Shown: one piece after another, positions 15,557-57,509 of the stretch
Layout: each line of letters begins with the position of its first letter
Position numbering within the stretch: position 1 is the stretch's first letter
NCBI GenBank assembly: GCA_022791775.1
Contig: JAAVZT010000003.1
Location: forward strand, 103,107 to 167,106
DNA: 64,000 nt
DNA from: Bacilli bacterium
GTDB taxonomy: Bacteria; Bacillota_I; Bacilli_A; RF39; UBA660
Reading direction: 5' to 3'
The notes under the pieces: model-generated
Seen by the model: only the letters and a program-made list of their open reading frames with translations
What the model was told of the DNA's origin: nothing
The model's database searches: none
Position numbers and translations under genes: made by a program

Positions 15557-15642
15557 GCGAGAATGGCGGAATAGGTAGACGCGCTACTTTGAGGGGGTAG
15601 TGAATTATTTTTGTGAGAGTTCAAATCTCTTTTCTCGCACCA
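15557..15642 (+). tRNA. tRNA-Leu (anticodon GAG), type II with a long variable arm, CCA encoded
   Basis: The acceptor stem GCGAGAA pairs with TTCTCGC. The anticodon stem CTACT/GGTAG carries the loop TTGAGGG, giving anticodon GAG. The T-arm is GAGAGTTCAAATCTCTT, followed by discriminator A and CCA. Confidence 0.85.
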
Positions 15643-42653: not shown

Positions 42654-44945
42654 TTGAGTCAAGTGGAAAGAGAAGATTTGGAAAATACAAAAGAAATTCA
42701 GAATTTAGATGAATTACGAGAAAAAGCAATTGACACATTAGAATTGGAATTCTTAGAAGTTTTAGATGAAAACAGGGAAGCGAGTACAGAGGAATTTATA
42801 AAAGAAGTAGAAGAACGAAACGAAGAACTTGTACAAGACGAAAAACCAAAAGAAGAACTTCAAGAAACGAAAAAGAAATCAGCCTGGAAAGAAAAAATCG
42901 TTGTGTGGAAAGAAAAATGGCAGAATTTACCCAAGCAAAAAAAAGCCCTCATTTTAATTGGAATTCTAATCTTATGTATTTTAATCGGCTTAGGAATATA
43001 CTTTTTAATTCCTGAAAAAGAAGAAAAGAAAGAAGAAAAAGGACCAGATATTATCGTTAATTTAGATAATTATCGTTATCAAAATGGAACACTCATCTTT
43101 TTAAACTCAAATAAAAAGGAAATTGGTCAATATGAATGTCAAAATAAAGATCAAGAACTTTGCTACGTTGCCTATTATAGTAATGAAGATAATTTTGACG
43201 AAGAGCATAACCTTTATGAAGATGGCACCAAGATTCCAAGAAGAAGTAATATTTTCTTAGATCGATATGTTTTTATTAGTGATAATAAATCAAAAGAAGA
43301 AGAGCTTCTAAGTCTTTATGATATAGAAGAAGCCAATATAATAGATCAGTATTTACTTGTGAAAGGTTATCAAAATTTAGAAAATCAAGTCATTTTAAAA
43401 GATAGTCAAAATAAATATGGATTATATCGTTTTACCCTAGAAGGGTTGACAAAAGGAATCGATTTTCAATATGAATATTTAGGTGTTATGGAATCCAAAG
43501 AAAGCCCAAATCGCCTTATCAGTAAAAACAACAACAAGTGGCAATTATTAGACTTCGATAATAAGACTGTTTCAAAAGCATTTTCAAATGAGATAAAGAA
43601 TTACAACGATCATCACATTACAATAAAAGATAATGAAAATCATTATCATGTAGTAGATTATAATAATAATGAACTAAATGAAGGAAATTATGAATATATC
43701 GAATTATTGGACAACTATATTTTATTCATTGAAAATCAAACTCTTTTTGTAAAAGATTATGAAAATAATAAAATGAATTTAGAAGGAATTTCTCTTGCTA
43801 GTAGAGATTATATTCCAACGTTAATCTATACAAAAGAAAATAAATTATTGGAAACAAAAAAAAGTTTTGAAACTTCCTTTCAAGGGGCATGGATGAATAT
43901 AGATATTTATAACGAAAATCAAAAAGAAACAAAACAGCTTAATATTCAAGAAGGACGTATTTCTAAAGATCTTGTTAACATGGATTATTTTGATGGAACA
44001 TTATACTTTTATAAAGATCAAGAAAAAAAAGAATTATTAGGAAATTATACATGTAAAAATAAAAATCAAATCGAGGAAAATACAAGTGAATTGAACAATT
44101 GTAAAATAGCGACTGAATCTTTCTATCAAGACAATGAATTAGAAGCAAGTAAAAAAGATCGTCTTGGAACTTTACCAATTTATAACGAAAGATATATTTT
44201 TATAACAGATAATTTAGACAAAAATACCAACATTATTTTATATGATTTAAAAGAGAAGAAGGAACTATCAAAATACCGAAGTGTAGATGCTGGAGCGTAC
44301 ACTAATACCACAAATTTAACGCTTGTGACCACTAGCAATACACCAATAATGGCGGAAAATACCAACGGAAAATATGGAATTTTTAAAATTAGCTACGATA
44401 AAGTGGAAGGAATAGATGGCTTAGGATTTCAGTTTGATCACGTTGAACGAATTGGGTTTCATTACTTAGTTCAAGACCAAAGTGGTTATCGTTTAATAAA
44501 TCATGAAGGGAAAAATCCATCAGGTTCTGTCACCAATAAAATTGTAAAATATAATGATAAATATATGGTTACCGCAAAAGATAATCAATATTATCTGTAT
44601 CATTTTGATGGAAGCGTAATCGATAATCGCGGTTATCAATATATCGAATTGTATGATGATTACTATGCTTGCGTTCAAAATACTAACTTAAAATTATATG
44701 CTTACAACGATTCCGAATATGATTATTTCCAAAAAGAAAATTTTACCCTAAAACGAACCAATTATTCAGGAAGTGGAACTTTAGCTTTTCGTATCATAAT
44801 CAATCAAAAAAAGGCTACCGTAGAAATAGGATTACCAAATGATTCTTATGATTCAAAAAAAATCGTACTATTAGAAAAAACAATTACTCCACCAATAGAC
44901 GATTCTGATGATGAAAGAAAGGAAACATCGAGTGATGAAGAATAA
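42654..44945 (+). CDS. Large membrane-anchored protein with an acidic N-terminus, one TM and repeated beta-rich extracellular modules
   Basis: 763 aa. TM is ALILIGILILCILIGLGIYFLI. Internal repeats (…GTLIFLNSNKKEIGQYECQNKDQELCY… and …GTLYFYKDQEKKELLGNYTCKNKNQ…) and xKYG(L/I)(Y/F)(R/K) modules resemble WG-type beta repeats. The start may be the GTG at 42663. Confidence 0.5.
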   Translation: MSQVEREDLENTKEIQNLDELREKAIDTLELEFLEVLDENREASTEEFIKEVEERNEELVQDEKPKEELQETKKKSAWKEKIVVWKEKWQNLPKQKKALILIGILILCILIGLGIYFLIPEKEEKKEEKGPDIIVNLDNYRYQNGTLIFLNSNKKEIGQYECQNKDQELCYVAYYSNEDNFDEEHNLYEDGTKIPRRSNIFLDRYVFISDNKSKEEELLSLYDIEEANIIDQYLLVKGYQNLENQVILKDSQNKYGLYRFTLEGLTKGIDFQYEYLGVMESKESPNRLISKNNNKWQLLDFDNKTVSKAFSNEIKNYNDHHITIKDNENHYHVVDYNNNELNEGNYEYIELLDNYILFIENQTLFVKDYENNKMNLEGISLASRDYIPTLIYTKENKLLETKKSFETSFQGAWMNIDIYNENQKETKQLNIQEGRISKDLVNMDYFDGTLYFYKDQEKKELLGNYTCKNKNQIEENTSELNNCKIATESFYQDNELEASKKDRLGTLPIYNERYIFITDNLDKNTNIILYDLKEKKELSKYRSVDAGAYTNTTNLTLVTTSNTPIMAENTNGKYGIFKISYDKVEGIDGLGFQFDHVERIGFHYLVQDQSGYRLINHEGKNPSGSVTNKIVKYNDKYMVTAKDNQYYLYHFDGSVIDNRGYQYIELYDDYYACVQNTNLKLYAYNDSEYDYFQKENFTLKRTNYSGSGTLAFRIIINQKKATVEIGLPNDSYDSKKIVLLEKTITPPIDDSDDERKETSSDEE

Positions 44946-45912
44946 TCAAAAAAAGGGAGTATTTATTACCATTATCGTGTTATTAATTATTTTTCTCCCT
45001 TTATCCGTTTGTTCTTTTGTTCTTCACTTGATGAATGAAAATAAGCCAAAAGAAAAAATATTAAATAATCCAACAAAACAATTTCAATTTAATAATAGTT
45101 TATATTTTTATTCTTCGCTTGGAAATTTGTTGCGCATTTATGAGTGCCAAAATCCAACAGGATTATGCGATTATGCTACAAGTAAGACAAATGATCAAAA
45201 GTATGCTCTTGATTATTATCAACAAGACGAACCCCAAAAGATTGAATTAATTAAAGAGCGTTATGCGTTTTTGGTTGATGCCGAAACAGAAGAAAATGCC
45301 AAACCTTTTCTATATGATGTAACAACGGATCATAAATATACCAGTTATGCTTCTGTGAAAAACTATGGAATAGGGATAGAAAATGATTTATTTATTGTCG
45401 AAAATGAAACAGGAAAATTTGGATTATTAAGCTTAAAAGAGAATCCGACCTTAAAAATAAAATTTGAATATGACTTTTTAGGACTTGCCAATTTTAAAAA
45501 CGATGATGAAGAAAAATTAATGAGCGATTTCTTTGTTGGATTAAAAGATAATGCTTGGTTTTTATTAGATATGAATGGTGCAGTATTAACCGAAGCCATT
45601 ACTTCAGAAATTGTTTCTTTCAATGGAAAAAATATTATTGTAAAAACAAAAGATGGATATTATTTAACCGATTATCAAAATAATATGGTTTTATCAAATG
45701 GACCTTTTCAAAATTTATTTTTTACAGGGAAATATTTAAATATATTGGAAAAAGATAATCAATTTTATATTTATGATATTACGTCTTCTTCCATAATATC
45801 TAAGACCATAACCGTTCTTCCAAATGACAAAATAACTTCAAAAATAAACGAAAATGGGAACTTGGATATCATTGTAAATCAGAAGATAGTAGATACCATT
45901 GCACTTTCCTAA
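44935..45912 (+). CDS. Paralogous membrane-anchored repeat protein (same module type as the upstream gene)
   Basis: N-terminal TM, then LYFYSSLGNLLRIYECQNPTGLCDY and GKFGLLSL/KFEYDFLG modules that parallel the 763-aa protein. ATG 44935 overlaps the upstream stop. Confidence 0.5.
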   Translation: MKNNQKKGVFITIIVLLIIFLPLSVCSFVLHLMNENKPKEKILNNPTKQFQFNNSLYFYSSLGNLLRIYECQNPTGLCDYATSKTNDQKYALDYYQQDEPQKIELIKERYAFLVDAETEENAKPFLYDVTTDHKYTSYASVKNYGIGIENDLFIVENETGKFGLLSLKENPTLKIKFEYDFLGLANFKNDDEEKLMSDFFVGLKDNAWFLLDMNGAVLTEAITSEIVSFNGKNIIVKTKDGYYLTDYQNNMVLSNGPFQNLFFTGKYLNILEKDNQFYIYDITSSSIISKTITVLPNDKITSKINENGNLDIIVNQKIVDTIALS

Positions 45913-48676: not shown

Positions 48677-48795
48677 GCTAAGAGATCTTATATTATTTGA
48701 GAGAATTTGAGACATAGAAATATGTCTTTTTCTTATTAAGAAAATTTACTTGACTATATAAAACATTATAATTTTAATGATATTTATACAAATTA

Positions 48796-48847
48796 TGGTA
48801 TAATTATAGTCACAATAGTTACATCATAGAAAATAGGATTCTATGAT
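48796..48847 (+). promoter_or_regulatory. Extended -10 promoter (TGGTATAAT, 48796-48804) followed by a 9-bp-arm inverted repeat ATCATAGAA-N7-TTCTATGAT (48823-48847), a putative operator
   Basis: Directly visible. The IR lies between the -10 element and the RBS GGTGAGGAG of the first SipW-cognate-like gene. Confidence 0.45.
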
Positions 48848-48863
48848 AAGGTGAGGAGTGTAT

Positions 48864-49439
48864 ATGGAGAAGAAAAGACAAAATAAAATTCTTGCGATTG
48901 TAGCCATTTGTATTGCTTTATTGGGTATGGGATTCTCCTATGCAAGTATGAGTACTAAGCTAGACATTAAAGGTTTCGCTACCATAAGCAGTGCTAATTG
49001 GGATGTTCATTTTGAAAATCTATCCCATGCCACTTTAATTGGCCAGGCAATTGAAAAAAAACATCCTACCATCACAGATAATTCAACATCGATTAGTACC
49101 TATGATGTGATGTTTCAAGCCGCAAAAGATGGAATTAGTTATGATATCGAAATTGTCAATGGTGGAGGAATCGATGCCAAAATCACATCTTTAAACATAT
49201 CAAAACCAATTTGCAAAGGCAGTGGAATTTCATCAAGTAACGATGAACAGTTAGTTTGCAATAATTTGCAATATACGATCAAATACTTAGATGGTACTCC
49301 GTTAAAAATTGGCGATATTTTAAAAAAAGGTACAACTACTTATGCTAGATTAAAGCTGGTTTATGAGGGGAGTGATTTACCTTTCGAAGAAGTAAGAATT
49401 AACGATTTAGGAATCACCATTCTATATTCCCAAAATTAA
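48864..49439 (+). CDS. Small secreted protein A with a SipW-cognate-like signal peptide (putative fibre/pilin-like subunit)
   Basis: ~191 aa from ATG 48864. N-terminus is KKRQNK + hydrophobic + GMGFSYASMST, then SANWDVHFENLS. C-terminus is ...DLGITILYSQN. Paralog of the next gene. Confidence 0.55.
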   Translation: MEKKRQNKILAIVAICIALLGMGFSYASMSTKLDIKGFATISSANWDVHFENLSHATLIGQAIEKKHPTITDNSTSISTYDVMFQAAKDGISYDIEIVNGGGIDAKITSLNISKPICKGSGISSSNDEQLVCNNLQYTIKYLDGTPLKIGDILKKGTTTYARLKLVYEGSDLPFEEVRINDLGITILYSQN

Positions 49440-49491
49440 AAGTGGGAAAAGAAGTGATTAATAAATAGATTAAAAAATAGGAGGAAATTGT

Positions 49492-50079
49492 ATGGAAAAA
49501 GAAAGAAAAACAAAATTTTTAGCTATTTTAGCTATCTGTATTGCGGTGGTTGGATTAACGGTTGGATTTGCAGCTTTTAGCTCAGCTTTAACAATTAATG
49601 GGACAAGTACCATAAAATCATCTAGTTGGCAAGTAAGATTTGAAAACTTATCTGCTGTAACAAAAACGGGGACAGCAACAGAGGTAAGCGCTCCAACTGT
49701 TAATACAAATGATACCAATATTGGAGATTATGACGTTACACTAACAACCCCAGGAGATTCAATCAGTTATACATTTGATGTTGCAAATAATGGTACATTT
49801 GATGCTGAAGTGACCACTATTACAATTCCAACGCCAACTTGCACAGGGAACGGTGCCAATGCAGAAATCGATGCCAAAAACGTATGTGATAACTTAAATT
49901 ATACCTTGACTTATGAAGATGGAACCGCAATTACTGCTACTGACGCTATTTTAGCAGGTCAAAGAAAAAGATTAAAATTAACACTTACTTATAGTAATAC
50001 GGTTACTGCTGAAAAGTTAGCTAGTGATGATGTGGCTATTAGCAATTTAGGAATTACAATTCTTTACTCTCAAAAGTAA
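49492..50079 (+). CDS. Small secreted protein B with a SipW-cognate-like signal peptide (paralog of A)
   Basis: 195 aa. N-terminus is KERKTK + hydrophobic + VGFAAFSSALT, then SSSWQVRFENLS. C-terminus is ...SNLGITILYSQK. Thr/Ala-rich. Confidence 0.55.
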   Translation: MEKERKTKFLAILAICIAVVGLTVGFAAFSSALTINGTSTIKSSSWQVRFENLSAVTKTGTATEVSAPTVNTNDTNIGDYDVTLTTPGDSISYTFDVANNGTFDAEVTTITIPTPTCTGNGANAEIDAKNVCDNLNYTLTYEDGTAITATDAILAGQRKRLKLTLTYSNTVTAEKLASDDVAISNLGITILYSQK

Positions 50080-50192
50080 TAAAATTCTTAAAAATTAAAA
50101 ATATAGAAAAGTGCAATCTAATTTCTTCTCGATGGCATTAATGGTTGTACTTTACTATATTTATTAGAAAAATGTTTAAAAGAAGGTGAAAC

Positions 50193-51329
50193 ATGAAAAA
50201 AAGTACGATCAAATTATTAATCATTGAATTTTTTTTAATATTTCTTTTACTATTAAATATTTTTTTAATAAATATAAAGAATCTTTATCTTTTATCAGGA
50301 ATGCTATTTTTTTTCTCACTTGTGACTGTTTGTCTATTAGGATATGAAAAAAATAGGCAGCGGTTTAAAAAAGACATTATTTTAAATATTGTGATATCTA
50401 CAGTTACTTTTCAGATTGTTCTATATTTATCTGGAATTTATCTAGGCTTCTTTAAAAATGGTTATAGTTTAACCTTATTCAACATATTAAAAAATATAAT
50501 TCCAATCTTTTTAATAATTCTCGTTTCAGAATTTTTAAGATACTGTATCAATGTGAAGGGTCAAAAAGAGAAAATAGTTATAGTCCTTTCTGTTCTTATT
50601 TTCGTTTTAATCGATGTCTCTTTACAAATTCATTTATATCAATTACAAAATAAAAAGGATGTATTTGAGCTTTTCTCTTATCTAGTTTTACCTAGTATCT
50701 CTAAAAATATATTACTCACTTATTTATCCATAAAGTTTGGTTACGAATCTAGTATTTTATATCGAAATATTATGGAACTGACCATCTACTTTATGCCAAT
50801 TTTACCAGATATTAATATTTATCTGAATGCAGTTTTAAATTTTATTTTCCCGCTTTTCTTATTTTACATTAACTATCAAAACTTTAATCCAAAAGAAAAC
50901 CAAAAAGATATAAGAAAAAAGAATTTTGGTTATCAAATAACAGGTGGTATTGTTACTTGTATATTTGTTATAATTGTTGCTTTAATCAGCGGGATTTTTC
51001 CAATATATGCTTTGGTGATCGGCTCAGAATCAATGATGCCCGAAATCAACAAGGGAGATATCGTTATCATTAAAAAATTAAACGGAAAACAGTTAATGGA
51101 TTTAGAAGAAAGAGATATCTTAGCCTTTCAGTATAATAAGAAAGTAGTAGTTCATCGAATTATTGAAATCCATGAAGTGAATGGAAATTATACCTTTAAA
51201 ACAAAAGGAGATAATAATAATACAGAAGATGAAGGGATTATTGACGAAAAAAAAGTAATAGGAAAAGTCATTTCGAGAGTACCTTATTTAGGGTATCCAA
51301 CAGTATGGCTCAACGAAGCAATGAATTAG
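50193..51329 (+). CDS. SipW-type (S26B, ER/archaeal-type) signal peptidase I fused to a ~250-aa N-terminal polytopic membrane domain
   Basis: The C-terminal ~120 aa (GSESMMPEINKGDIVIIKK ... VVVHRIIEI ... KGDNN) match the SipW Ser/His-type catalytic core (SGSMEP...GD...HR). About 7 TM helices precede it. Canonical SipW is ~190 aa. Confidence 0.65.
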   Translation: MKKSTIKLLIIEFFLIFLLLLNIFLINIKNLYLLSGMLFFFSLVTVCLLGYEKNRQRFKKDIILNIVISTVTFQIVLYLSGIYLGFFKNGYSLTLFNILKNIIPIFLIILVSEFLRYCINVKGQKEKIVIVLSVLIFVLIDVSLQIHLYQLQNKKDVFELFSYLVLPSISKNILLTYLSIKFGYESSILYRNIMELTIYFMPILPDINIYLNAVLNFIFPLFLFYINYQNFNPKENQKDIRKKNFGYQITGGIVTCIFVIIVALISGIFPIYALVIGSESMMPEINKGDIVIIKKLNGKQLMDLEERDILAFQYNKKVVVHRIIEIHEVNGNYTFKTKGDNNNTEDEGIIDEKKVIGKVISRVPYLGYPTVWLNEAMN

Positions 51330-51338
51330 GAGGAAAAT

Positions 51339-52457
51339 ATGAAACAAAGATCAAAATATGATGGTATGGAGAAACAATATTATGTAGAAAAAAAGAAACT
51401 AAATGTAAAAGCCTGGTTTTTCATATTGATATTACCAGCCTTTGCCTTATTATTATTAAGTGCTTATTGTATGAAAGATGCGATTAATTTAGATAAGAAT
51501 CAAAATAATGTTTCTTATCATGAAATAGGGAAAATAGATTATAAAGTTTATCTAAAAGAAAACAATTATTATACAGAAAAATTTTTACCGAAAGAAATGA
51601 AATATATAGCTAATCTAATAAATACCATTAATGTGGACTTTAATTATGAAATGCACTCTACTAACAATTTAGATTACAACTATACCTATAAAATTACAGC
51701 CAATTTATTAGTTACAGATAAAAATGATAAAACAAAAGTATTATATGAAAAACCTTCAATTTTATTAGAAGAAACCACTAAGAAGATAACGGCTAATAAT
51801 TTTATCATTAATGAAGATATTGATATTGATTATGACGAGTATAATAATTATGTCAATGCTTTTAAAAAAGATTATGCTCTAACAGTAGATAGCAAATTAA
51901 TATTAACCCTCGAAGTGAAAACCAATGGAACATATCAAACTGTAAAAGATTTGAAGACCAATAATCAGTTACAAATTTCAATTCCTTTATCTGAACAAAC
52001 TATTGATATTACCATGGATTCCAAAGAATTAAATGATAAAGGGGTACTTACAAGTGAGACCTCCTTTCAAATAAATAATATTATTCTCTTTATCGCGGGA
52101 ATTACCCTTGGTATAGTTTCTATAACTTTGTTAGGAATTGCACTTTATCTATTTGTAACAACTAGAAGAAAAAAAGATTTATATCATACAACAGTAGACA
52201 AATATTTAAAAGAATATGATCGTGTAATTATAACCAGCAAACAACCAAATGTGGATGAAAGATTATTTGATGAAATTATTCGTGTTATGACAATCGAAGA
52301 ACTTTTGGATTTACATGATATGACTAAAGAACCCATTATATATTATGAAGTGATTCCAAATGAAAAAAGTTATTTTATTGTAATTCATAATCGTTTACTT
52401 TATAAACTTACAATTACCAAAGCATGGTTAGAGAGAAATCAAGGCGATGACAACTAG
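51339..52457 (+). CDS. Bitopic/2-TM membrane protein of unknown function within the SipW locus
   Basis: 372 aa. TM1 at ~25-45, a ~190-aa extracytoplasmic region, TM2 (ILFIAGITLGIVSITLLGIALYLFV), then a ~110-aa cytoplasmic tail. Confidence 0.45.
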   Translation: MKQRSKYDGMEKQYYVEKKKLNVKAWFFILILPAFALLLLSAYCMKDAINLDKNQNNVSYHEIGKIDYKVYLKENNYYTEKFLPKEMKYIANLINTINVDFNYEMHSTNNLDYNYTYKITANLLVTDKNDKTKVLYEKPSILLEETTKKITANNFIINEDIDIDYDEYNNYVNAFKKDYALTVDSKLILTLEVKTNGTYQTVKDLKTNNQLQISIPLSEQTIDITMDSKELNDKGVLTSETSFQINNIILFIAGITLGIVSITLLGIALYLFVTTRRKKDLYHTTVDKYLKEYDRVIITSKQPNVDERLFDEIIRVMTIEELLDLHDMTKEPIIYYEVIPNEKSYFIVIHNRLLYKLTITKAWLERNQGDDN

Positions 52458-53829
52458 AATGAAAAAACGGTTTAATCGTAATCCTAAAGATAAAACAATA
52501 TTTTTCCTAGTATTATTCTCAAGCTTGTCTATTATAGGAATGTCCATTGGCTTTTCAGCTTTAAACACAGAATTAAGTATCAGCGGAGATGCATACGTGC
52601 GAGTCGATGAAGAAATTCGTATTACAGATTTAAAAATGCTAGAAGCAATAAACGGAGCTTATGAAACCTATAACAGTAAATATAGTAAAGATACCAATAG
52701 TATGTTTGTAACATTACCAAATAATAATTCAACAATGACTTATCAAGTCACAATTGTAAATAAAAGTAGTTTAAATTATAAGTTAAAAGATATTTTGGAA
52801 GAAAGCAATACTAATTCAAATATTTCTTATGAAATAATTCACATCAGTATGAATGATAGAATTGAAAGTAATTCCACTATAACTTTTCAAATAAAGGTTA
52901 CATCTCGTTTGGATAATCAAAAAACAGCTATAGTCTTAAAATACCTTTTTGAAATTGCCGATAATTGTCAATACAATATTGGTCATGAATTTGCCTTTGA
53001 TTATACTGGAGAAGAACAAAACTTTGTCGTTCCATGCGATGGGACTTACAAATTAGAAACATGGGGAGCACAAGGTGGGAATATCTCGAATAGTTGTATT
53101 GGCGGATACGGTGCATACGCCCGTGGCAGTATGAAATTAGAAACAAATGAAAAATTATATGTTAATGTAGGCGGACAAGGTTCCACTGTTTTAATAAATC
53201 CCACCATTGTTAGATCATTAGGGGGTTATAATGGAGGAGGCTATGGGTTAACCGATCATGCTTACAATACTTCAGGAGGAGGAGGAGCGACTCATATTTC
53301 AAAAAATTCTGGAATCTTATCAAGTTTATCAACGGAAAATAATAATTTATCTTTACTAATAGCTAGTGCTGGTGGAGGAGGAGCATATTCTAATAATATC
53401 GGAGCTGTAAATGGTGGTTGCGGCGGTGGTATAAAAGGATGTAATGGAATTAGCCATCCAGAATATACAAGATTTGGTACAGCAACAGGAGCTACACAAA
53501 TATCAGGTGGAACTACAATCATGATAGGAGATAGTTTTATAGAGACTAGTGGTTTTGGGAAAGGCGCAGATGCTCCAGATAATTCTGGTTCTGGAGGTGG
53601 TGGTGGCTACTATGGTGGAGGAGCACACGTAGGTGGTGCTGGTGCAGGAGGTTCTTCATACATCGGTAATTCTCTATTAACCACCAAAGAAATGTATTGT
53701 TATAACTGTGAGGAATCTTCTGAAATAAATACAAAAACCATTAGAACTACAAATGCGAGCGTAGATGCAATTAGCAATTATGCTAAAAAAGGAAACGGTT
53801 ATGCTAAAATCACTTATTTAGGCAAATAA
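52447..53829 (+). CDS. Large secreted Gly-rich protein with a SipW-cognate-like N-terminus
   Basis: 460 aa. N-terminus is KKRFNRNPKDK + hydrophobic + GMSIGFSALNTE. The C-terminal half has Gly-rich low-complexity tracts (GGGGATH, AGGGGAYS, GGCGGGIKGCNG, GSGGGGGYYGGGAHVGGAGAGG). Confidence 0.5.
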   Translation: MTTRMKKRFNRNPKDKTIFFLVLFSSLSIIGMSIGFSALNTELSISGDAYVRVDEEIRITDLKMLEAINGAYETYNSKYSKDTNSMFVTLPNNNSTMTYQVTIVNKSSLNYKLKDILEESNTNSNISYEIIHISMNDRIESNSTITFQIKVTSRLDNQKTAIVLKYLFEIADNCQYNIGHEFAFDYTGEEQNFVVPCDGTYKLETWGAQGGNISNSCIGGYGAYARGSMKLETNEKLYVNVGGQGSTVLINPTIVRSLGGYNGGGYGLTDHAYNTSGGGGATHISKNSGILSSLSTENNNLSLLIASAGGGGAYSNNIGAVNGGCGGGIKGCNGISHPEYTRFGTATGATQISGGTTIMIGDSFIETSGFGKGADAPDNSGSGGGGGYYGGGAHVGGAGAGGSSYIGNSLLTTKEMYCYNCEESSEINTKTIRTTNASVDAISNYAKKGNGYAKITYLGK

Positions 53830-53923
53830 TTAAATATAGCGAATTTTCCTCCTAATCAATTAAACGAAAAAGCTTGATTTTATCAAAAAGGAATGTTAGC
53901 ATATCAAAAAAGGAAAAAAATTT

Positions 53924-54928
53924 ATGAATAACCAAAATATTGAAGAAATTTACAAAAGCTTTTTTCCAAAATTGGAAGCACAATTTAAATCTATTGAATA
54001 TCGAATACCTATTTCTAAAAAAGAATATCTTTCCATTGCCAAAGAAACAATTTGGAAAATGACAAAAAAAGATGTTACAACAAGCCAAATAATGAATCAG
54101 ATCTACCAAAAATTAAAAGATTACAGGAACCAACCACATTCTTTTAAAGAAACAAATTCTAGTTTTTCTCTCCAAGAATACTGTCAACAAATAGAACAAA
54201 ATTATTTCACCATTGAAGAAGAGCGAGCTTATATTCAAAAAATCCAAAAAGGGGATAAAATAGCAAAGAGAGAGTTTGTACAAAAATACTTAAAATATGT
54301 AATCTATGTCGCTAAAAATTATATTGTATCAGGAATAGAAATGGATGACCTAGTAGCAGAAGGTAATTTAGGACTTTATGATGCATTAAATCATTATGAC
54401 GAAACCAAAGGTCGCTTTACAACCTACGCAAGACCATACATCCAAAAGAGAATATGCCGATTAATCCAGTCTTCTTTTCTTTCACAACAAGTTATCCTAG
54501 AAATTAATTCCTATCAAAAAAAATTAAAAATACTAGAAATAAGTTTGAATCGCTCAATTACCATAAACGAACGCGCCGAATATATGTCTTTACCTGTAGC
54601 AACAATAGAACGATATGAATTTATTTGGAATATGTTGATAGAGAAAACACTAAAATGTCAAGATAGTGATGATCCAACCTTTGATTCTTACTATTTGATA
54701 TATAAAACATTTCAATTAAAAGAAAACATTGCTAAAATAATAGAAAAATTACCTCCAAACTACCAAGAGGTAATAAAAATTAGATACATGGGCTCTAGAA
54801 AATTAAAATTCCAAGAAGTTGCAGATAAACTAGGAACAAGTCGCCAAAATATTCAACAGATAGAAGCAAGAGCTTTAAAACGTATTCGAAAAATGCCTGA
54901 AGCAGCTATATTAGAAGAATATCTATAA
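53924..54928 (+). CDS. Sigma-70-family RNA polymerase sigma factor with a ~100-aa N-terminal extension
   Basis: Region 2 (YLKYVIYVAKNY...DDLVAEGNLGLYDALNHYDETKGRFTTYARPYI) and region 4 HTH (KLPPNYQEVIKIRYMG...FQEVADKLGTSRQNIQQIEARALKRIR). 334 aa. Confidence 0.7.
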   Translation: MNNQNIEEIYKSFFPKLEAQFKSIEYRIPISKKEYLSIAKETIWKMTKKDVTTSQIMNQIYQKLKDYRNQPHSFKETNSSFSLQEYCQQIEQNYFTIEEERAYIQKIQKGDKIAKREFVQKYLKYVIYVAKNYIVSGIEMDDLVAEGNLGLYDALNHYDETKGRFTTYARPYIQKRICRLIQSSFLSQQVILEINSYQKKLKILEISLNRSITINERAEYMSLPVATIERYEFIWNMLIEKTLKCQDSDDPTFDSYYLIYKTFQLKENIAKIIEKLPPNYQEVIKIRYMGSRKLKFQEVADKLGTSRQNIQQIEARALKRIRKMPEAAILEEYL

Positions 54929-55036
54929 AAAATAGATATTTTTTTAATAATTTAAATCTAACATATTTGTAAGAAAGTTAGGAAAAACTAGGAAGTAAGT
55001 CAAATTTATGATACACTTAATATAGTTGGTGAAGTT

Positions 55037-56074
55037 ATGAAACGAATAAAACGTTACTTTTTGTCAATCGGCTTATTTTTTATATTATTTGGAATCACCT
55101 TTTACTATATCTTTTCCAAATATTCTTTAACCGAATTTTACCTTTCATTTCAAAAATGCAATCATTTTTTTATTTTAGGTGCTTTCTTTTGTGTCCTCCT
55201 ATATTTATTATTAGGGGCAATTTTTACTAAAAAAATGTTTCAAGCTTTTCAAACATCCATAACTTGGTTTCAAAGTTTAAGTTATAATTGTATCGAAATA
55301 TACTTTTCGGCAGTTACACCTTCTAGTACAGGAGGTCAGCCAGTCGAAGCATATTATATGGGAAGAGATAAAATTCCTTATCAAAAAAGTACCGTAGTAA
55401 TTTTATTAAATACCATTTTGTATAAATTGGCAATTGTCATATTAGGATTAATTGGAATGATATTTGTCCCTAAATTAATTTTTCAAAACGGCTGGTTTTT
55501 TACATTTCTTATGCTGCTTGGTCTATTTATTAATATCGTAGTCATTGTATTCTTTACCTGTCTTATTTACTCCAAAACCTTACCGCAAAAAATGTTAAAA
55601 ATAGGAATGAATCTTTTATCTTTTTTACATTTATTAAAAGGAGAAGAAAAAAAGAAAAAAGAGGAGAATATGAACACTATAATGAAAGACTATCAAAATT
55701 GTGCTGAATTTACTCAAAACCATCCGAAAATAATTCTAAAATCCTTTGGGTATATTTTATTACAACGCATTTGTCTTTTTGGAGTAAGTTATTTTATCTA
55801 TAGAGCATTTGGTCTAAACGACTATAATTTCTTTGCCATTTTGTTTTTACAAATTGCGATTACGCAAGCTACAGACTGTGTTCCTTTTCCTGGCGGAGTA
55901 ATGGCTGGAGAAACTTTAACTTACCAAATCACATCCATTTTATATGGAACGGAACTAGCTTTTTCTTCCATGTTATTGTTAAGAGGAATCAGTTTTTACT
56001 TTTTAGTTTTTTTAAGTAGTTTATTCTTTGTAATATATCATTTTAAAAGCAGTAGAAAGAGGAAAGAATTATGA
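55037..56074 (+). CDS. Lysylphosphatidylglycerol-synthase-TM-region-like (UPF0104/flippase-like) membrane protein
   Basis: 345 aa with ~8 TM helices. Size and topology fit this family. It sits adjacent to phospholipid-synthesis genes. Assignment by architecture only. Confidence 0.4.
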   Translation: MKRIKRYFLSIGLFFILFGITFYYIFSKYSLTEFYLSFQKCNHFFILGAFFCVLLYLLLGAIFTKKMFQAFQTSITWFQSLSYNCIEIYFSAVTPSSTGGQPVEAYYMGRDKIPYQKSTVVILLNTILYKLAIVILGLIGMIFVPKLIFQNGWFFTFLMLLGLFINIVVIVFFTCLIYSKTLPQKMLKIGMNLLSFLHLLKGEEKKKKEENMNTIMKDYQNCAEFTQNHPKIILKSFGYILLQRICLFGVSYFIYRAFGLNDYNFFAILFLQIAITQATDCVPFPGGVMAGETLTYQITSILYGTELAFSSMLLLRGISFYFLVFLSSLFFVIYHFKSSRKRKEL

Positions 56075-56697
56075 TTGGAATATATAATTACACAGTTTTA
56101 TTTACCTTATTTGGAACTATTACGGGCTTAATCAGCATAACTGAAGCAATGAGTGGTAACCTTGAAATTGCTTTATTAGGATTACTTGTTTGTGGCTTTT
56201 TTGACATGTTTGATGGAACTATTGCTCGAACGAAAAAAAATCGAACCGAATTTGAAATTCAATATGGAATCCAATTAGACTCTTTATCTGATGTCGTATG
56301 TTTTGGAGCACTTCCTACTATAATTGCCTTTCAAATCACTAAACCACTTGGCCTTTGGCAATCTCTAACCATTTTATATATGGTAGCAAGTATTTCTCGT
56401 CTTGCCTATTTCAATGTGGAAGAAGCAATGCGAAGAGAAAAAGAGAATGGAAGAAGAAAAACCTATACAGGATTACCTGTTACAACTGCCGCAATTATAT
56501 TCCCAATTTTGTATTTATTTTCTTTTTGGATCCCAAATTTCTTTCCTGTGTTCTATTTAACAGGCGTCTTAATCACGGCATGTTTTCACATTTCTAAAAT
56601 AAAAGTTCCGCATTTAGAAAAGAAAGGATTGATAATATGTCTGATCATCGGAATCGTCTTATTGAGTTTAATAAGCTTTCTACTGTTTCTAGCATAG
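56071..56697 (+). CDS. pssA: CDP-alcohol phosphatidyltransferase (phosphatidylserine synthase-like)
   Basis: DMFDGTIARTKKNRTEFEIQYGIQLDSLSDVV is the CDP-OH transferase motif D-G-x2-A-R-x8-G-x3-D-x3-D. 208 aa. Psd lies downstream. Confidence 0.75.
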   Translation: MIGIYNYTVLFTLFGTITGLISITEAMSGNLEIALLGLLVCGFFDMFDGTIARTKKNRTEFEIQYGIQLDSLSDVVCFGALPTIIAFQITKPLGLWQSLTILYMVASISRLAYFNVEEAMRREKENGRRKTYTGLPVTTAAIIFPILYLFSFWIPNFFPVFYLTGVLITACFHISKIKVPHLEKKGLIICLIIGIVLLSLISFLLFLA

Positions 56698-57509
56698 AAA
56701 AAAACGGTATTTGTCTGCGTTTTTTGTATCATACTATGTTAGGTAGATGTTTTTTAAAAATAATGATTCAACCTTGGCTTTCTAATTTAATTGGTCAATT
56801 ATTTGAAACAAGATTATCTAAAATCGGAATAAACCATTTTATAAAAAAACATCAAATCGATCTAACTCGCTTTGAAAAAAAAGAATATTGTTCTTTTAAC
56901 GATTTCTTTTCTAGAAAATTAAAAGAATCCGCTTGGAAAGCCGACAGAAATTTTTTATGCGCCCCATGTGATGGAAAGCTAAGTGTTTACAAAATTAATG
57001 ATGATTTAACTTTATCGATCAAGCATTCTCGTTATACCATTTCCTCCCTGATTCAAGAGGAGGAAATAGCAAATCGATATCAAGAAGGATGGTGTTTCGT
57101 TTTTCGTTTAACTCCTGATGATTATCATCGCTATCACTTTATAGATGATGGAGAAATCATTCAGCAAAAAAAAATTAATGGAGTCTTTCATACCGTAAGA
57201 CCTATTGCCCAAGAAAAATATCCCATTTTTTCAGAAAATACAAGAGAAATAACGATTATGAATACGAAAAACTTTCAGACGATAACTCAAATTGAAGTAG
57301 GAGCTTTACTTGTTGGAAAAATTGCAAATCACTCCCTCCAAGCTTTTCAAAAAGGAGAGGAAAAGGGAACCTTTTTATTTGGAGGATCTACTATTATTTT
57401 ATTAGTAGAAAAAAATGCAATACAGATTAATCCCACATTACTATGCAATACAATGCATCATTTAGAAACCATTGTCCATTATCAAGATCAATTAGGTGTA
57501 AAAAATTAG
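56637..57509 (+). CDS. psd: Phosphatidylserine decarboxylase proenzyme
   Basis: C-terminal FGGSTIILL (the GST self-cleavage site) and a FHYIDDGE region. The start is uncertain; it may be the downstream ATG at 56736, which would remove the 60-nt overlap with pssA. Confidence 0.7.
   Translation: MSDHRNRLIEFNKLSTVSSIEKNGICLRFLYHTMLGRCFLKIMIQPWLSNLIGQLFETRLSKIGINHFIKKHQIDLTRFEKKEYCSFNDFFSRKLKESAWKADRNFLCAPCDGKLSVYKINDDLTLSIKHSRYTISSLIQEEEIANRYQEGWCFVFRLTPDDYHRYHFIDDGEIIQQKKINGVFHTVRPIAQEKYPIFSENTREITIMNTKNFQTITQIEVGALLVGKIANHSLQAFQKGEEKGTFLFGGSTIILLVEKNAIQINPTLLCNTMHHLETIVHYQDQLGVKN

Follow-up and report, generated by a model that had tools for sequence, protein, structure and literature searches.

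A conserved five-gene cassette of gut Bacilli probably encodes a TasA-superfamily-type surface fibre and includes a signal peptidase joined to a CAAX-protease-like membrane domain

TasA-like donor-strand fibres are an emerging cross-domain route to biofilm matrices and pili that involves neither chaperone-usher nor sortase. In B. subtilis, the tapA-sipW-tasA operon places a dedicated endoplasmic reticulum (ER)/archaeal-type signal peptidase gene beside the genes of its substrates. The haloarchaeal Tat-fimbriae (tafi; Tat, twin-arginine translocation) comprise the pilins TafA and TafE, the peptidase TafD, the DUF5305 protein TafG and the tip protein TafC, and processing of the pilin by TafD was shown genetically. 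Loci of the AbpX type, found in archaea, Bacillota and Chloroflexota, combine genes for a major and an AbpX-like minor subunit and for a tip protein with those for a DUF5305 protein and a type I signal peptidase (SPase I) with ten transmembrane (TM) segments (bioRxiv 10.64898/2026.01.04.697558). The papers on both tafi and AbpX (the latter being the same preprint) propose that DUF5305 proteins are accessory subunits of the signal peptidase, to which they are sometimes fused. In S. aureus, the CAAX-protease-like protein SpbR, which has degenerate motifs, binds SpsB, a signal peptidase of type I, and controls its activity (PMC12260438). Here we describe a locus of six genes, A to F, in a stretch of 64,000 nucleotides (the window) from a Bacilli bacterium of the RF39 lineage (assembly GCA_022791775.1, contig JAAVZT010000003.1, positions 103,107 to 167,106, forward strand). 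An original prediction, made from the sequence without database searches, had seen in it a possibly undescribed extracellular assembly system dependent on a SipW-type peptidase and equipped with its own sigma factor. Our analysis favours, with a probability of about 0.68, the reading that A to E encode a Sec-dependent surface fibre of the TasA-superfamily type, whose peptidase is fused to a CAAX-like domain and is accompanied by a DUF5305 partner.

A and B, the two small proteins, are paralogous at 43% identity (E 4e-50), and both contain the W-x-V-x-FENLS stretch noted originally. The N-terminal motif G(M/L)xxGF(S/A)xxS described at the same time fits B exactly but A only approximately (GMGFSYAS). 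The signal peptide predicted for A ends in ...GFSYA and would leave a mature protein of ~164 amino acids with an isoelectric point of 5.3. A hypothetical protein in the metagenome-assembled genome (MAG) of a 'Bacilli bacterium' has the same sequence as B (100% identity), and a large protein collection returned 163 homologs of B, of ~195 amino acids; those listed carry no Pfam domain, and the few that are named are called 'hypothetical protein'. The alignment of the family displays an invariant cysteine pair (Cys117/Cys132 in B) and the motif PGDS-x-S-Y-x-F-D-V-x-N-x-G-T, and conservation peaks directly after the hydrophobic N-terminus. From 87 subunits with a recognisable motif, taken from loci of 80 species, we derived the predicted cleavage-site consensus L-[ST]-[ILV]-G-[FY]-A/A-[FYL]-[ST]-x-T-L-x-I-x-[GS]-x-A-x-V (the slash marks the predicted cut), in which P1 and P1' are alanine and P2 and P2' aromatic. 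In this arrangement the predicted site G-[FY]-A/A-[FYL]-[ST] parallels the SipW-specific site of TasA, TWA/AFND. Hydrophobic residues partly alternate in the segment after the predicted cut (L-x-I, A-x-V).

A model of B that AlphaFold2 produced from 48 sequences (mean predicted local distance difference test, pLDDT, 90) contains a signal helix (residues 2-28), an extended segment lying outside the fold (~28-47) and a beta-sandwich (48-194). The extended segment is conserved and unstructured in this monomer model, and would be the putative donor strand (AFSSALTINGTSTI...). When the model was compared with the PDB using Foldseek, the top matches (with 7ueg, 8aur and 7pnb as leading entries) were the AbpA pilus, the TasA fibre, CfaB, the Saci_0406 thread of Sulfolobus and FimG, with probabilities of 0.97-0.99 but TM-scores of 0.31-0.37 and E values of ~2e-3. 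Matches below threshold to PF12389 (camelysin/TasA) were found in 31 of the 48 family members (best E 3.6e-4), making it the most recurrent family. The P. abyssi AbpX sequence was taken from the preprint supplement, and hhalign aligned it to the B family over 150 columns with a score of 40.6 (probability 81%), compared with 17.4 +/- 1.4 for shuffles that preserved the signal peptide. A and B are very probably distant subunits of the TasA superfamily and may polymerise by strand donation.

The larger protein E starts with a signal-like segment and bears the same signal/cleavage motif as A and B (GFSALNTELSISG). Its N-terminal domain is related to theirs (hhalign probability 86.6%, E 4.5e-6; reciprocal phmmer matches), and residues 198-458 match the ALK_LTK_GRD family PF12810 at 127.1 bits (cut-off 24.5; model positions 7-243 of 243), in agreement with the secreted protein with glycine-rich tracts seen originally. 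The proposed layout of paralogous subunits plus a larger adaptor is therefore recovered, with A and B as the paralogs and E as a pilin-like N-domain carrying a head. In other species, the E-type N-domain is joined to DUF285/leucine-rich repeat (LRR), dockerin, DUF6273, Flg_new or unassigned heads, in proteins of up to 1328 amino acids; such swappable heads fit a variable tip or decorating adhesin. Searches of PDB sequences returned nothing for D and, with phmmer, nothing for E.

The processing enzyme would be C. Its residues 253-376 pass the NCBIfam model TIGR02228 for archaeal-type signal peptidase I with 85.4 bits (cut-off 51.85), as expected from the archaeal/ER-type core first recognised in its C-terminal part, and reach only 67 bits with the Bacillus SipW equivalog NF046067 (cut-off 190). 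Judged by these profile scores, C is SipW-like in type and not an ortholog of Bacillus SipW. All 55 homologs share residues S280, H321, R322, D340 and D346, so that the Ser/His dyad is present, and the catalytic domain is 29% identical to SEC11A. The model of C (pLDDT 88) shows eight helices between residues 3 and 231, a basic linker, an anchor helix (245-266) and a beta-rich catalytic domain. The N-terminal extension of the peptidase is thus real, but it consists of eight helices followed by the anchor helix and not of the ~7 TM segments first counted. With a basic N-terminus inside and nine crossings, the catalytic domain would lie outside.

The gene that follows, D, was correctly described as encoding a membrane protein with two TM segments (hydrophobic stretches 20-49 and 242-276). 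It belongs to DUF5305 (PF17231, 57.4 bits, cut-off 29; profile positions 1-215 of 217) and, by analogy with tafi and AbpX, is proposed to assist the signal peptidase as an accessory subunit.

To follow these genes across genomes, we scanned one genome per GTDB species with a 14-sequence alignment as query and obtained 80 loci, around which genes were counted by ORF (open reading frame) calling and phmmer with the window proteins. A DUF5305 gene lies directly 3' of the long peptidase gene in 78 of the 80 species loci, and one to six small paralogs lie directly 5' of it in 73. Half of the loci (40/80) encode a large protein with a pilin-like N-domain, in 36 of these directly after DUF5305. The closest other species contains A-B-C-D-E, including the glycine-rich domain (GRD) of E, at another chromosomal site after efp, and its B protein is 83% identical. 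This co-occurrence, with the Ser/His dyad, bears out the idea of a dedicated assembly cassette dependent on a SipW/ER-type peptidase. The six-gene arrangement proposed for it is conserved in its first five genes but not in F: the order A-E is kept, and neither the closest other species nor 79 of the 80 loci has a sigma gene nearby, which makes A-E (48864-53829) the conserved unit and F a local gene.

Judged by record titles, most of the 80 loci come from uncultured gut Bacilli, whose MAG labels include Tenericutes, Mollicutes, Mycoplasma and Erysipelotrichaceae, and two come from Saccharibacteria. The Saccharibacteria cassettes (L084:3713-11007 and L081:329-5645) read pilin, long peptidase, DUF5305 and large protein; one is on a 734,667-base Nanosyncoccaceae contig, and L084 also has a second pilin and DUF5305 pair. 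They suggest either horizontal spread beyond Bacilli or use by episymbionts. The chromosomal site of the cassette varies with the species; the gene before it is valS, efp, tsf, ytxH or a GAF-domain gene (L001, L002, L004, L088, L090). Metagenome contigs show this gene order too, beside various housekeeping genes (efp, tsf, ytxH) and, in one case, an integrase. A phage-type integrase gene stands immediately upstream of the cassette in L002 (6323-7318) and L003, a hint of mobility. A rabbit-gut Bacilli MAG (L057:3033-7902) has six tandem pilin paralogs of ~212-229 amino acids each before the peptidase gene, and L045, L063 and L084 have second peptidase and/or DUF5305 copies close by.

The N-terminal domain of C (residues 1-231) is modelled as an eight-helix CAAX-protease (CPBP) fold. 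This assignment comes from the fold search, sequence methods being uninformative: Pfam gave no hit for residues 1-231, a Pfam scan of 55 members of the domain family at E<=5 did not list PF02517 in its 25 most recurrent families, and a profile search of PDB sequences matched no CPBP chain. All 55 members conserve five polar residues that lie within the membrane, E113, R116, K122, D/E141 and N172; F137 and S168 are conserved as well. Taken by helix order, and not by residue-level structural alignment, the motifs E113xxR116, F137xxx[D/E]141 and S168xxxN172 correspond to the canonical EExxxR, FxxxH and HxxxD/N, so that the catalytic motifs of the family are not matched. Both histidines of motifs 2 and 3 are absent, and no histidine column is conserved in residues 1-244 of the 55 homologs. 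Non-catalytic bacterial CAAX-like proteins, for example SpbR, typically show such a degenerate pattern, and the domain is probably a degenerate, non-catalytic CPBP fold. A profile of the domain collected 1415 clusters at 50% identity; among the best 150 of these, almost all proteins have 370-390 amino acids with the domain at residues 1-235, and this shared length and architecture indicates that the fusion with the peptidase is old and fixed.

One protein of 812 amino acids (P0264) carries the CPBP-like domain at residues 1-234 followed by metallophosphatase and 5'-nucleotidase domains, with no signal peptidase; it could be a real alternative fusion or an artefact of assembly or gene calling. 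It was also considered as a fusion of SPase with DUF5305 and rejected as such, its C-terminal part being metallophosphatase/5'-nucleotidase and not DUF5305.

The polytopic domain had been thought to have no analogue. The ten-TM SPases of AbpX loci (bioRxiv 10.64898/2026.01.04.697558), the CPBP fold and the SpbR-SpsB partnership argue otherwise. A statement that such peptidase extensions have a CPBP fold was not found in the searchable literature, and the searched text of the AbpX preprint mentions neither CAAX nor CPBP nor Rce1.

The same domain could be read as an active intramembrane protease, which, instead of serving as a scaffold, would break down signal peptides after their release or cut the precursors a second time. 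The CPBP fold itself, the 55/55 conservation of E113, R116, K122, D/E141 and N172 and the fixation of the fusion over 1415 clusters are all compatible with this, and active bacterial CPBP proteases such as MroQ are known. We nevertheless regard it as unlikely, for the histidines of motifs 2 and 3 are both missing without any conserved histidine column in their place, the FxxxD pattern and the degenerate motif 1 resemble the non-catalytic SpbR, SpdC and LnsB, and the PF02517 signal was not found in the 55-member scan described above. CPBP proteins are also linked to bacteriocins through the Abi family, and A and B might accordingly be secreted toxins with C providing CPBP/Abi-type immunity. Beyond the fold and that known link nothing speaks for such a module, which we judge very improbable: A and B are ~17-kDa beta-sandwiches with pilin-like matches, they go together with DUF5305 and with large proteins whose heads are adhesin-like, and transporter and modification genes are absent from the cassette.

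From the gene content, family assignments, folds, conserved residues and synteny observed here, we infer the cleavage position, the polymerisation and the roles of D, E and the CPBP-like domain as follows. A, B and E would be made with the class-specific signal peptide L-[ST]-[ILV]-G-[FY]-A/A-[FYL]-[ST] and inserted by Sec. At the outer face of the membrane, the peptidase domain of C, together with D, would cut the precursors at G[FY]A/A[FYL][ST] and free the conserved amphipathic N-terminal strand A-F-S-x-T-L-x-I-x-G-x-A-x-V. The freed strand would enter the beta-sandwich of a neighbour (donor-strand complementation), so that B and A polymerise into the shaft of a thin filament. E would join through its pilin-like N-domain and display its glycine-rich head as a tip or decorating adhesin. 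The N-domain of C and D would most likely make up a dedicated signal-peptidase complex by which precursors of this class are docked or gated, comparable to SpbR acting in trans on SpsB.

Several observations weigh against such a fibre. No Pfam or NCBIfam model matches A or B at threshold, and single-sequence and profile searches of PDB sequences with both proteins gave nothing meaningful. The mature part of the B family alone aligns weakly to AbpX (score 20.4, E 0.02, z ~3 against shuffles), and the acidic residue conserved at position 4 of AbpX is not conserved in the A/B family. The cassette encodes no cell-wall anchor (LPXTG, SLH) and no sortase. For the N-domain of C, the motifs are equated by helix order, E-x-x-R falls one residue short of the canonical spacing E-x-x-x-R, and the invariant E, R, K, D/E and N could mark an active site.

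The small proteins could instead stay monomeric, as secreted or surface proteins such as camelysin-like coat proteins or adhesins. In that case no filament would form, and the peptidase would be needed only for a site with aromatic P2 and P2' residues that is refractory to the housekeeping enzyme. The fold matches are indeed moderate, with generic beta-sandwich domains scoring alike, neither an anchor nor a TapA-like nucleator gene is present, and a TasA-type site blocks LepB-type peptidases, which alone could explain a dedicated enzyme. Two features of the family make this rather unlikely: the post-cleavage segment is the most conserved part, partly alternating in hydrophobicity and unstructured in the monomer model, as is typical of donor strands, and the one to six tandem paralogs with a large protein sharing the pilin-like N-domain reproduce the major/minor/tip layout of tafi and AbpX. 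We retain the fibre as the preferred reading.

The sixth gene, F, encodes a sigma-70-family factor with an N-terminal extension, as had been recognised: regions 2 and 4 are present (PF04542, 48.5 bits; PF04545, 43.9 bits; TIGR02937, 88.2 bits with a cut-off of 42.9) and region 2 starts at residue 118. A homolog search at E<=1e-20 returned one distant protein (32% identity) and did not return the identical same-species protein, so that F is either very divergent or poorly indexed. The view that it is dedicated to the locus did not survive the comparison of genomes. A sigma-70 gene occurs within 8 kb in a single one of the 80 species loci and is absent beside the cassette of the closest relative, and the valS...sigma...hrcA arrangement is kept in same-species assemblies only. 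F as a member of the cassette was thus rejected on synteny.

Upstream of A, the leader contains an extended -10 (TGgTATAAT) and, a little downstream of it, the inverted repeat. The original prediction had placed an operator-like repeat behind an extended -10 promoter; the perfect 9-nucleotide repeat is there, but the promoter is supported by its position alone, because promoter-like hexamers in this AT-rich DNA (43 found, 41.3 expected) are no commoner than in shuffled sequence. The repeat could be an operator or an mRNA hairpin, and its RNA fold is modest (-12.3 kcal/mol, z -2.3). A degenerate relative of it, TAGAA-N7-TTCTA, occupies the same position in the closest relative (L088). No second good copy was found in the window, where the only exact copy is that before A, and no exact copy was found before other cassettes; the repeat was accordingly rejected as the operator of a regulon. 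A scan of the window with Rfam found no known RNA element in the leader.

No terminator-like site lies between E and F. An AT-rich hairpin with a T-run, which the G+C-biased terminator scan did not call, follows at the end of F and is possibly the end of the transcription unit. F may therefore be co-transcribed with A-E. Several points would fit a six-gene system in which F drives the operon and a repressor acts on the inverted repeat: F follows E after 94 nucleotides on the same strand, it is divergent enough to have one distant relative in the search above, and the closest relative has a related repeat. Such a system is nonetheless improbable. The closest other species has its five genes, GRD head included, elsewhere and without a sigma gene, the 1/80 count of nearby sigma-70 matches argues in the same direction, the extended -10 before A is of the housekeeping type, and no regulator gene is encoded in the cassette while the repeat lacks a second copy in the window. 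Both F and the inverted repeat are at most regulating the operon, as local features of the source species outside the machine formed by A-E.

All six ORFs were found at the positions first given for them, head-to-tail on the + strand. The coordinates of the genes, their domains and the flanking signals are collected in the table. For A, the start at ATG 48864 is preferred over GTG 48858; the ribosome-binding site (RBS) GGTGAGGAG is 6 nucleotides upstream, and public gene calls concur. Only 9 nucleotides separate C from D, and the stop of D overlaps the start of E by 11 nucleotides.

Table. Features of the locus, in window coordinates
Feature	Position	Strand	Description
Promoter-like site	48777-48804	+	ATGATA, 16-nucleotide spacer, TATAAT with upstream TG (extended -10, 48796-48804); 10/12 matches
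Inverted repeat ATCATAGAA-N7-TTCTATGAT	48823-48847	+	Perfect 9-nucleotide arms in the 5' leader; ends 3 nucleotides before the RBS
Gene A	48864-49439	+	191 amino acids; pilin-like subunit paralog; 2 Cys
Gene B	49492-50079	+	195 amino acids; pilin-like subunit, nearer the family consensus than A
Gene C	50193-51329	+	378 amino acids; polytopic N-domain and signal peptidase I
Gene C, residues 1-231	50193-50885	+	Predicted eight-helix CAAX-protease/CPBP-fold membrane domain with degenerate motifs
Gene C, residues 245-378	50925-51329	+	Anchor helix 245-266 and ER/archaeal-type (SipW-like) peptidase domain
Gene D	51339-52457	+	372 amino acids; DUF5305, two TM segments
Gene E	52447-53829	+	460 amino acids; pilin-like N-domain and glycine-rich head
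Gene E, residues 1-190	52447-53016	+	Signal peptide with GFSA(L) motif, then pilin-like domain
Gene E, residues 198-460	53038-53829	+	ALK/LTK-type glycine-rich domain PF12810; variable head of the large subunit
Gene F	53924-54928	+	334 amino acids; divergent sigma-70-family factor, regions 2 and 4
AT-rich hairpin TATCTA-N7-TAGATA and T-run	54920-54946	+	Spans the F stop codon (54926-54928); read from the sequence

The locus is flanked by valS upstream and, downstream, by an LPG-synthase-like membrane gene, pssA-like and psd-like genes, hrcA, grpE and dnaK, and the G+C content across the region is nothing unusual. Upstream of valS, two adjacent + strand genes (42654-44945 and 44911-45912; 763 and 333 amino acids) have no Pfam hit on the same-species contig records, their coordinates being transferred from L091. 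At 55037-57509, 3' of F, a compact lipid operon encodes the LPG_synthase_TM-like protein, a CDP-alcohol phosphatidyltransferase and a phosphatidylserine decarboxylase, with ORFs overlapping at 56071/56074 and 56637/56697; hrcA-grpE-dnaK come next. The only two curated RNAs of the window in Rfam are an L21 leader (36.4 bits, gathering score 36) and one tRNA, at 2836-2907 and 15557-15639. The locus was also considered as anti-phage defence, and this was rejected: PADLOC gave a partial MzaA match for F only and nothing for A-E.

A further-reaching idea, which we hold tentatively and give a modest chance of being right, is that the fusion and DUF5305 make up a prokaryotic multi-part signal peptidase complex for fibres. 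In it, the CPBP-like domain would capture the signal peptide and hand the donor strand to the fibre as an assembly platform, and the cassettes would represent adhesive fibres of an unrecognised family whose heads (GRD, LRR/DUF285, dockerin, DUF6273) are swappable. If true, such fibres would be widespread among uncultured gut Bacilli with small genomes and would also occur in Saccharibacteria, and they may attach cells to hosts, other bacteria or particles, the modular adhesin heads perhaps deciding what the cells attach to. The fusion would then serve as Rosetta-stone evidence for a general partnership of CAAX-like pseudo-proteases with signal peptidases, as in SpbR-SpsB, and a polytopic peptidase domain that is a CAAX-like pseudo-enzyme would tie fibre biogenesis to the CAAX-like regulation of signal peptidases. 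The donor-strand principle would extend to a large unannotated clade, given the 1415 clusters of the N-domain, whose surface biology is almost unknown, and a family of 'hypothetical proteins' would gain a concrete function.

Compared with the TasA operon, the cassette shares the dedicated ER/archaeal-type peptidase gene beside its probable substrates, a predicted site in which P1 and P1' are alanine and P2 and P2' aromatic, a mature subunit modelled as a beta-sandwich with an N-terminal strand, whose leading but moderate structural matches include the TasA fibre, and the weak recurrent PF12389 signal of the A/B family. It differs in that A and B stay below the PF12389 threshold and C below the SipW cut-off (67 against 190 bits), in the 231-residue CPBP-like domain of C, which Bacillus SipW lacks, and in having a DUF5305 partner and a large subunit with swappable head but no TapA.

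The AbpX loci come close in gene content, with a polytopic SPase I, DUF5305 and minor and tip subunits, and their subunit resembles A and B in being acidic, with one cysteine pair and an aromatic residue at mature position 2; the hhalign match has a probability of 81% over 150 columns. However, similarity of the mature domains is weak (E 0.02, z ~3), the acidic position 4, linked to Ca2+ in AbpX, is not conserved here, C has nine predicted helices against ten TM segments, and the cassette is without SLH or LPXTG anchors, cyclic di-guanosine monophosphate (c-di-GMP) genes and two-component genes. The tafi loci likewise pair a dedicated peptidase with DUF5305 and have minor and tip subunits with variable domains. 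In contrast to the Sec-type basic-hydrophobic signals of A, B and E, their signals are of the Tat type, the four-TM TafD carries an extra domain at its C-terminus where C has its N-terminal CPBP-like domain, and the loci include an Lrp-like regulator.

For the N-domain of C, the pair SpbR-SpsB also joins a degenerate CAAX-like polytopic protein to a type I peptidase, and FIYLD, motif 2 of SpbR, follows the same FxxxD pattern as F137-V-L-I-D141 of C. SpbR, a protein in its own right, inhibits a peptidase of the P-type (LepB-like), whereas the domain of C is fused in cis to an ER-type peptidase, and Pfam scans of 55 members and the profile search of PDB sequences detected no sequence homology between them. 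Unlike Rce1 and SpdC (CPBP, type II CAAX, PF02517), the N-domain of C has no PF02517 match, lacks both catalytic histidines and has an altered motif 1 spacing. The head of E matches nearly the full GRD model of ALK/LTK (PF12810), but E is a bacterial surface protein in which the GRD is joined to a pilin-like module, with no kinase context. The claim of an undescribed system thus holds for the clade but not for the kind of system, which is already known because the tafi, AbpX and TasA loci share its logic. What sets the present cassettes apart is a subunit family that, as judged from its sequences, no curated model captures and whose link to AbpX and TasA is weak, together with modular heads, the lack of anchor genes, a clade in uncultured gut Bacilli and Saccharibacteria, and the CPBP-fold extension of the peptidase.

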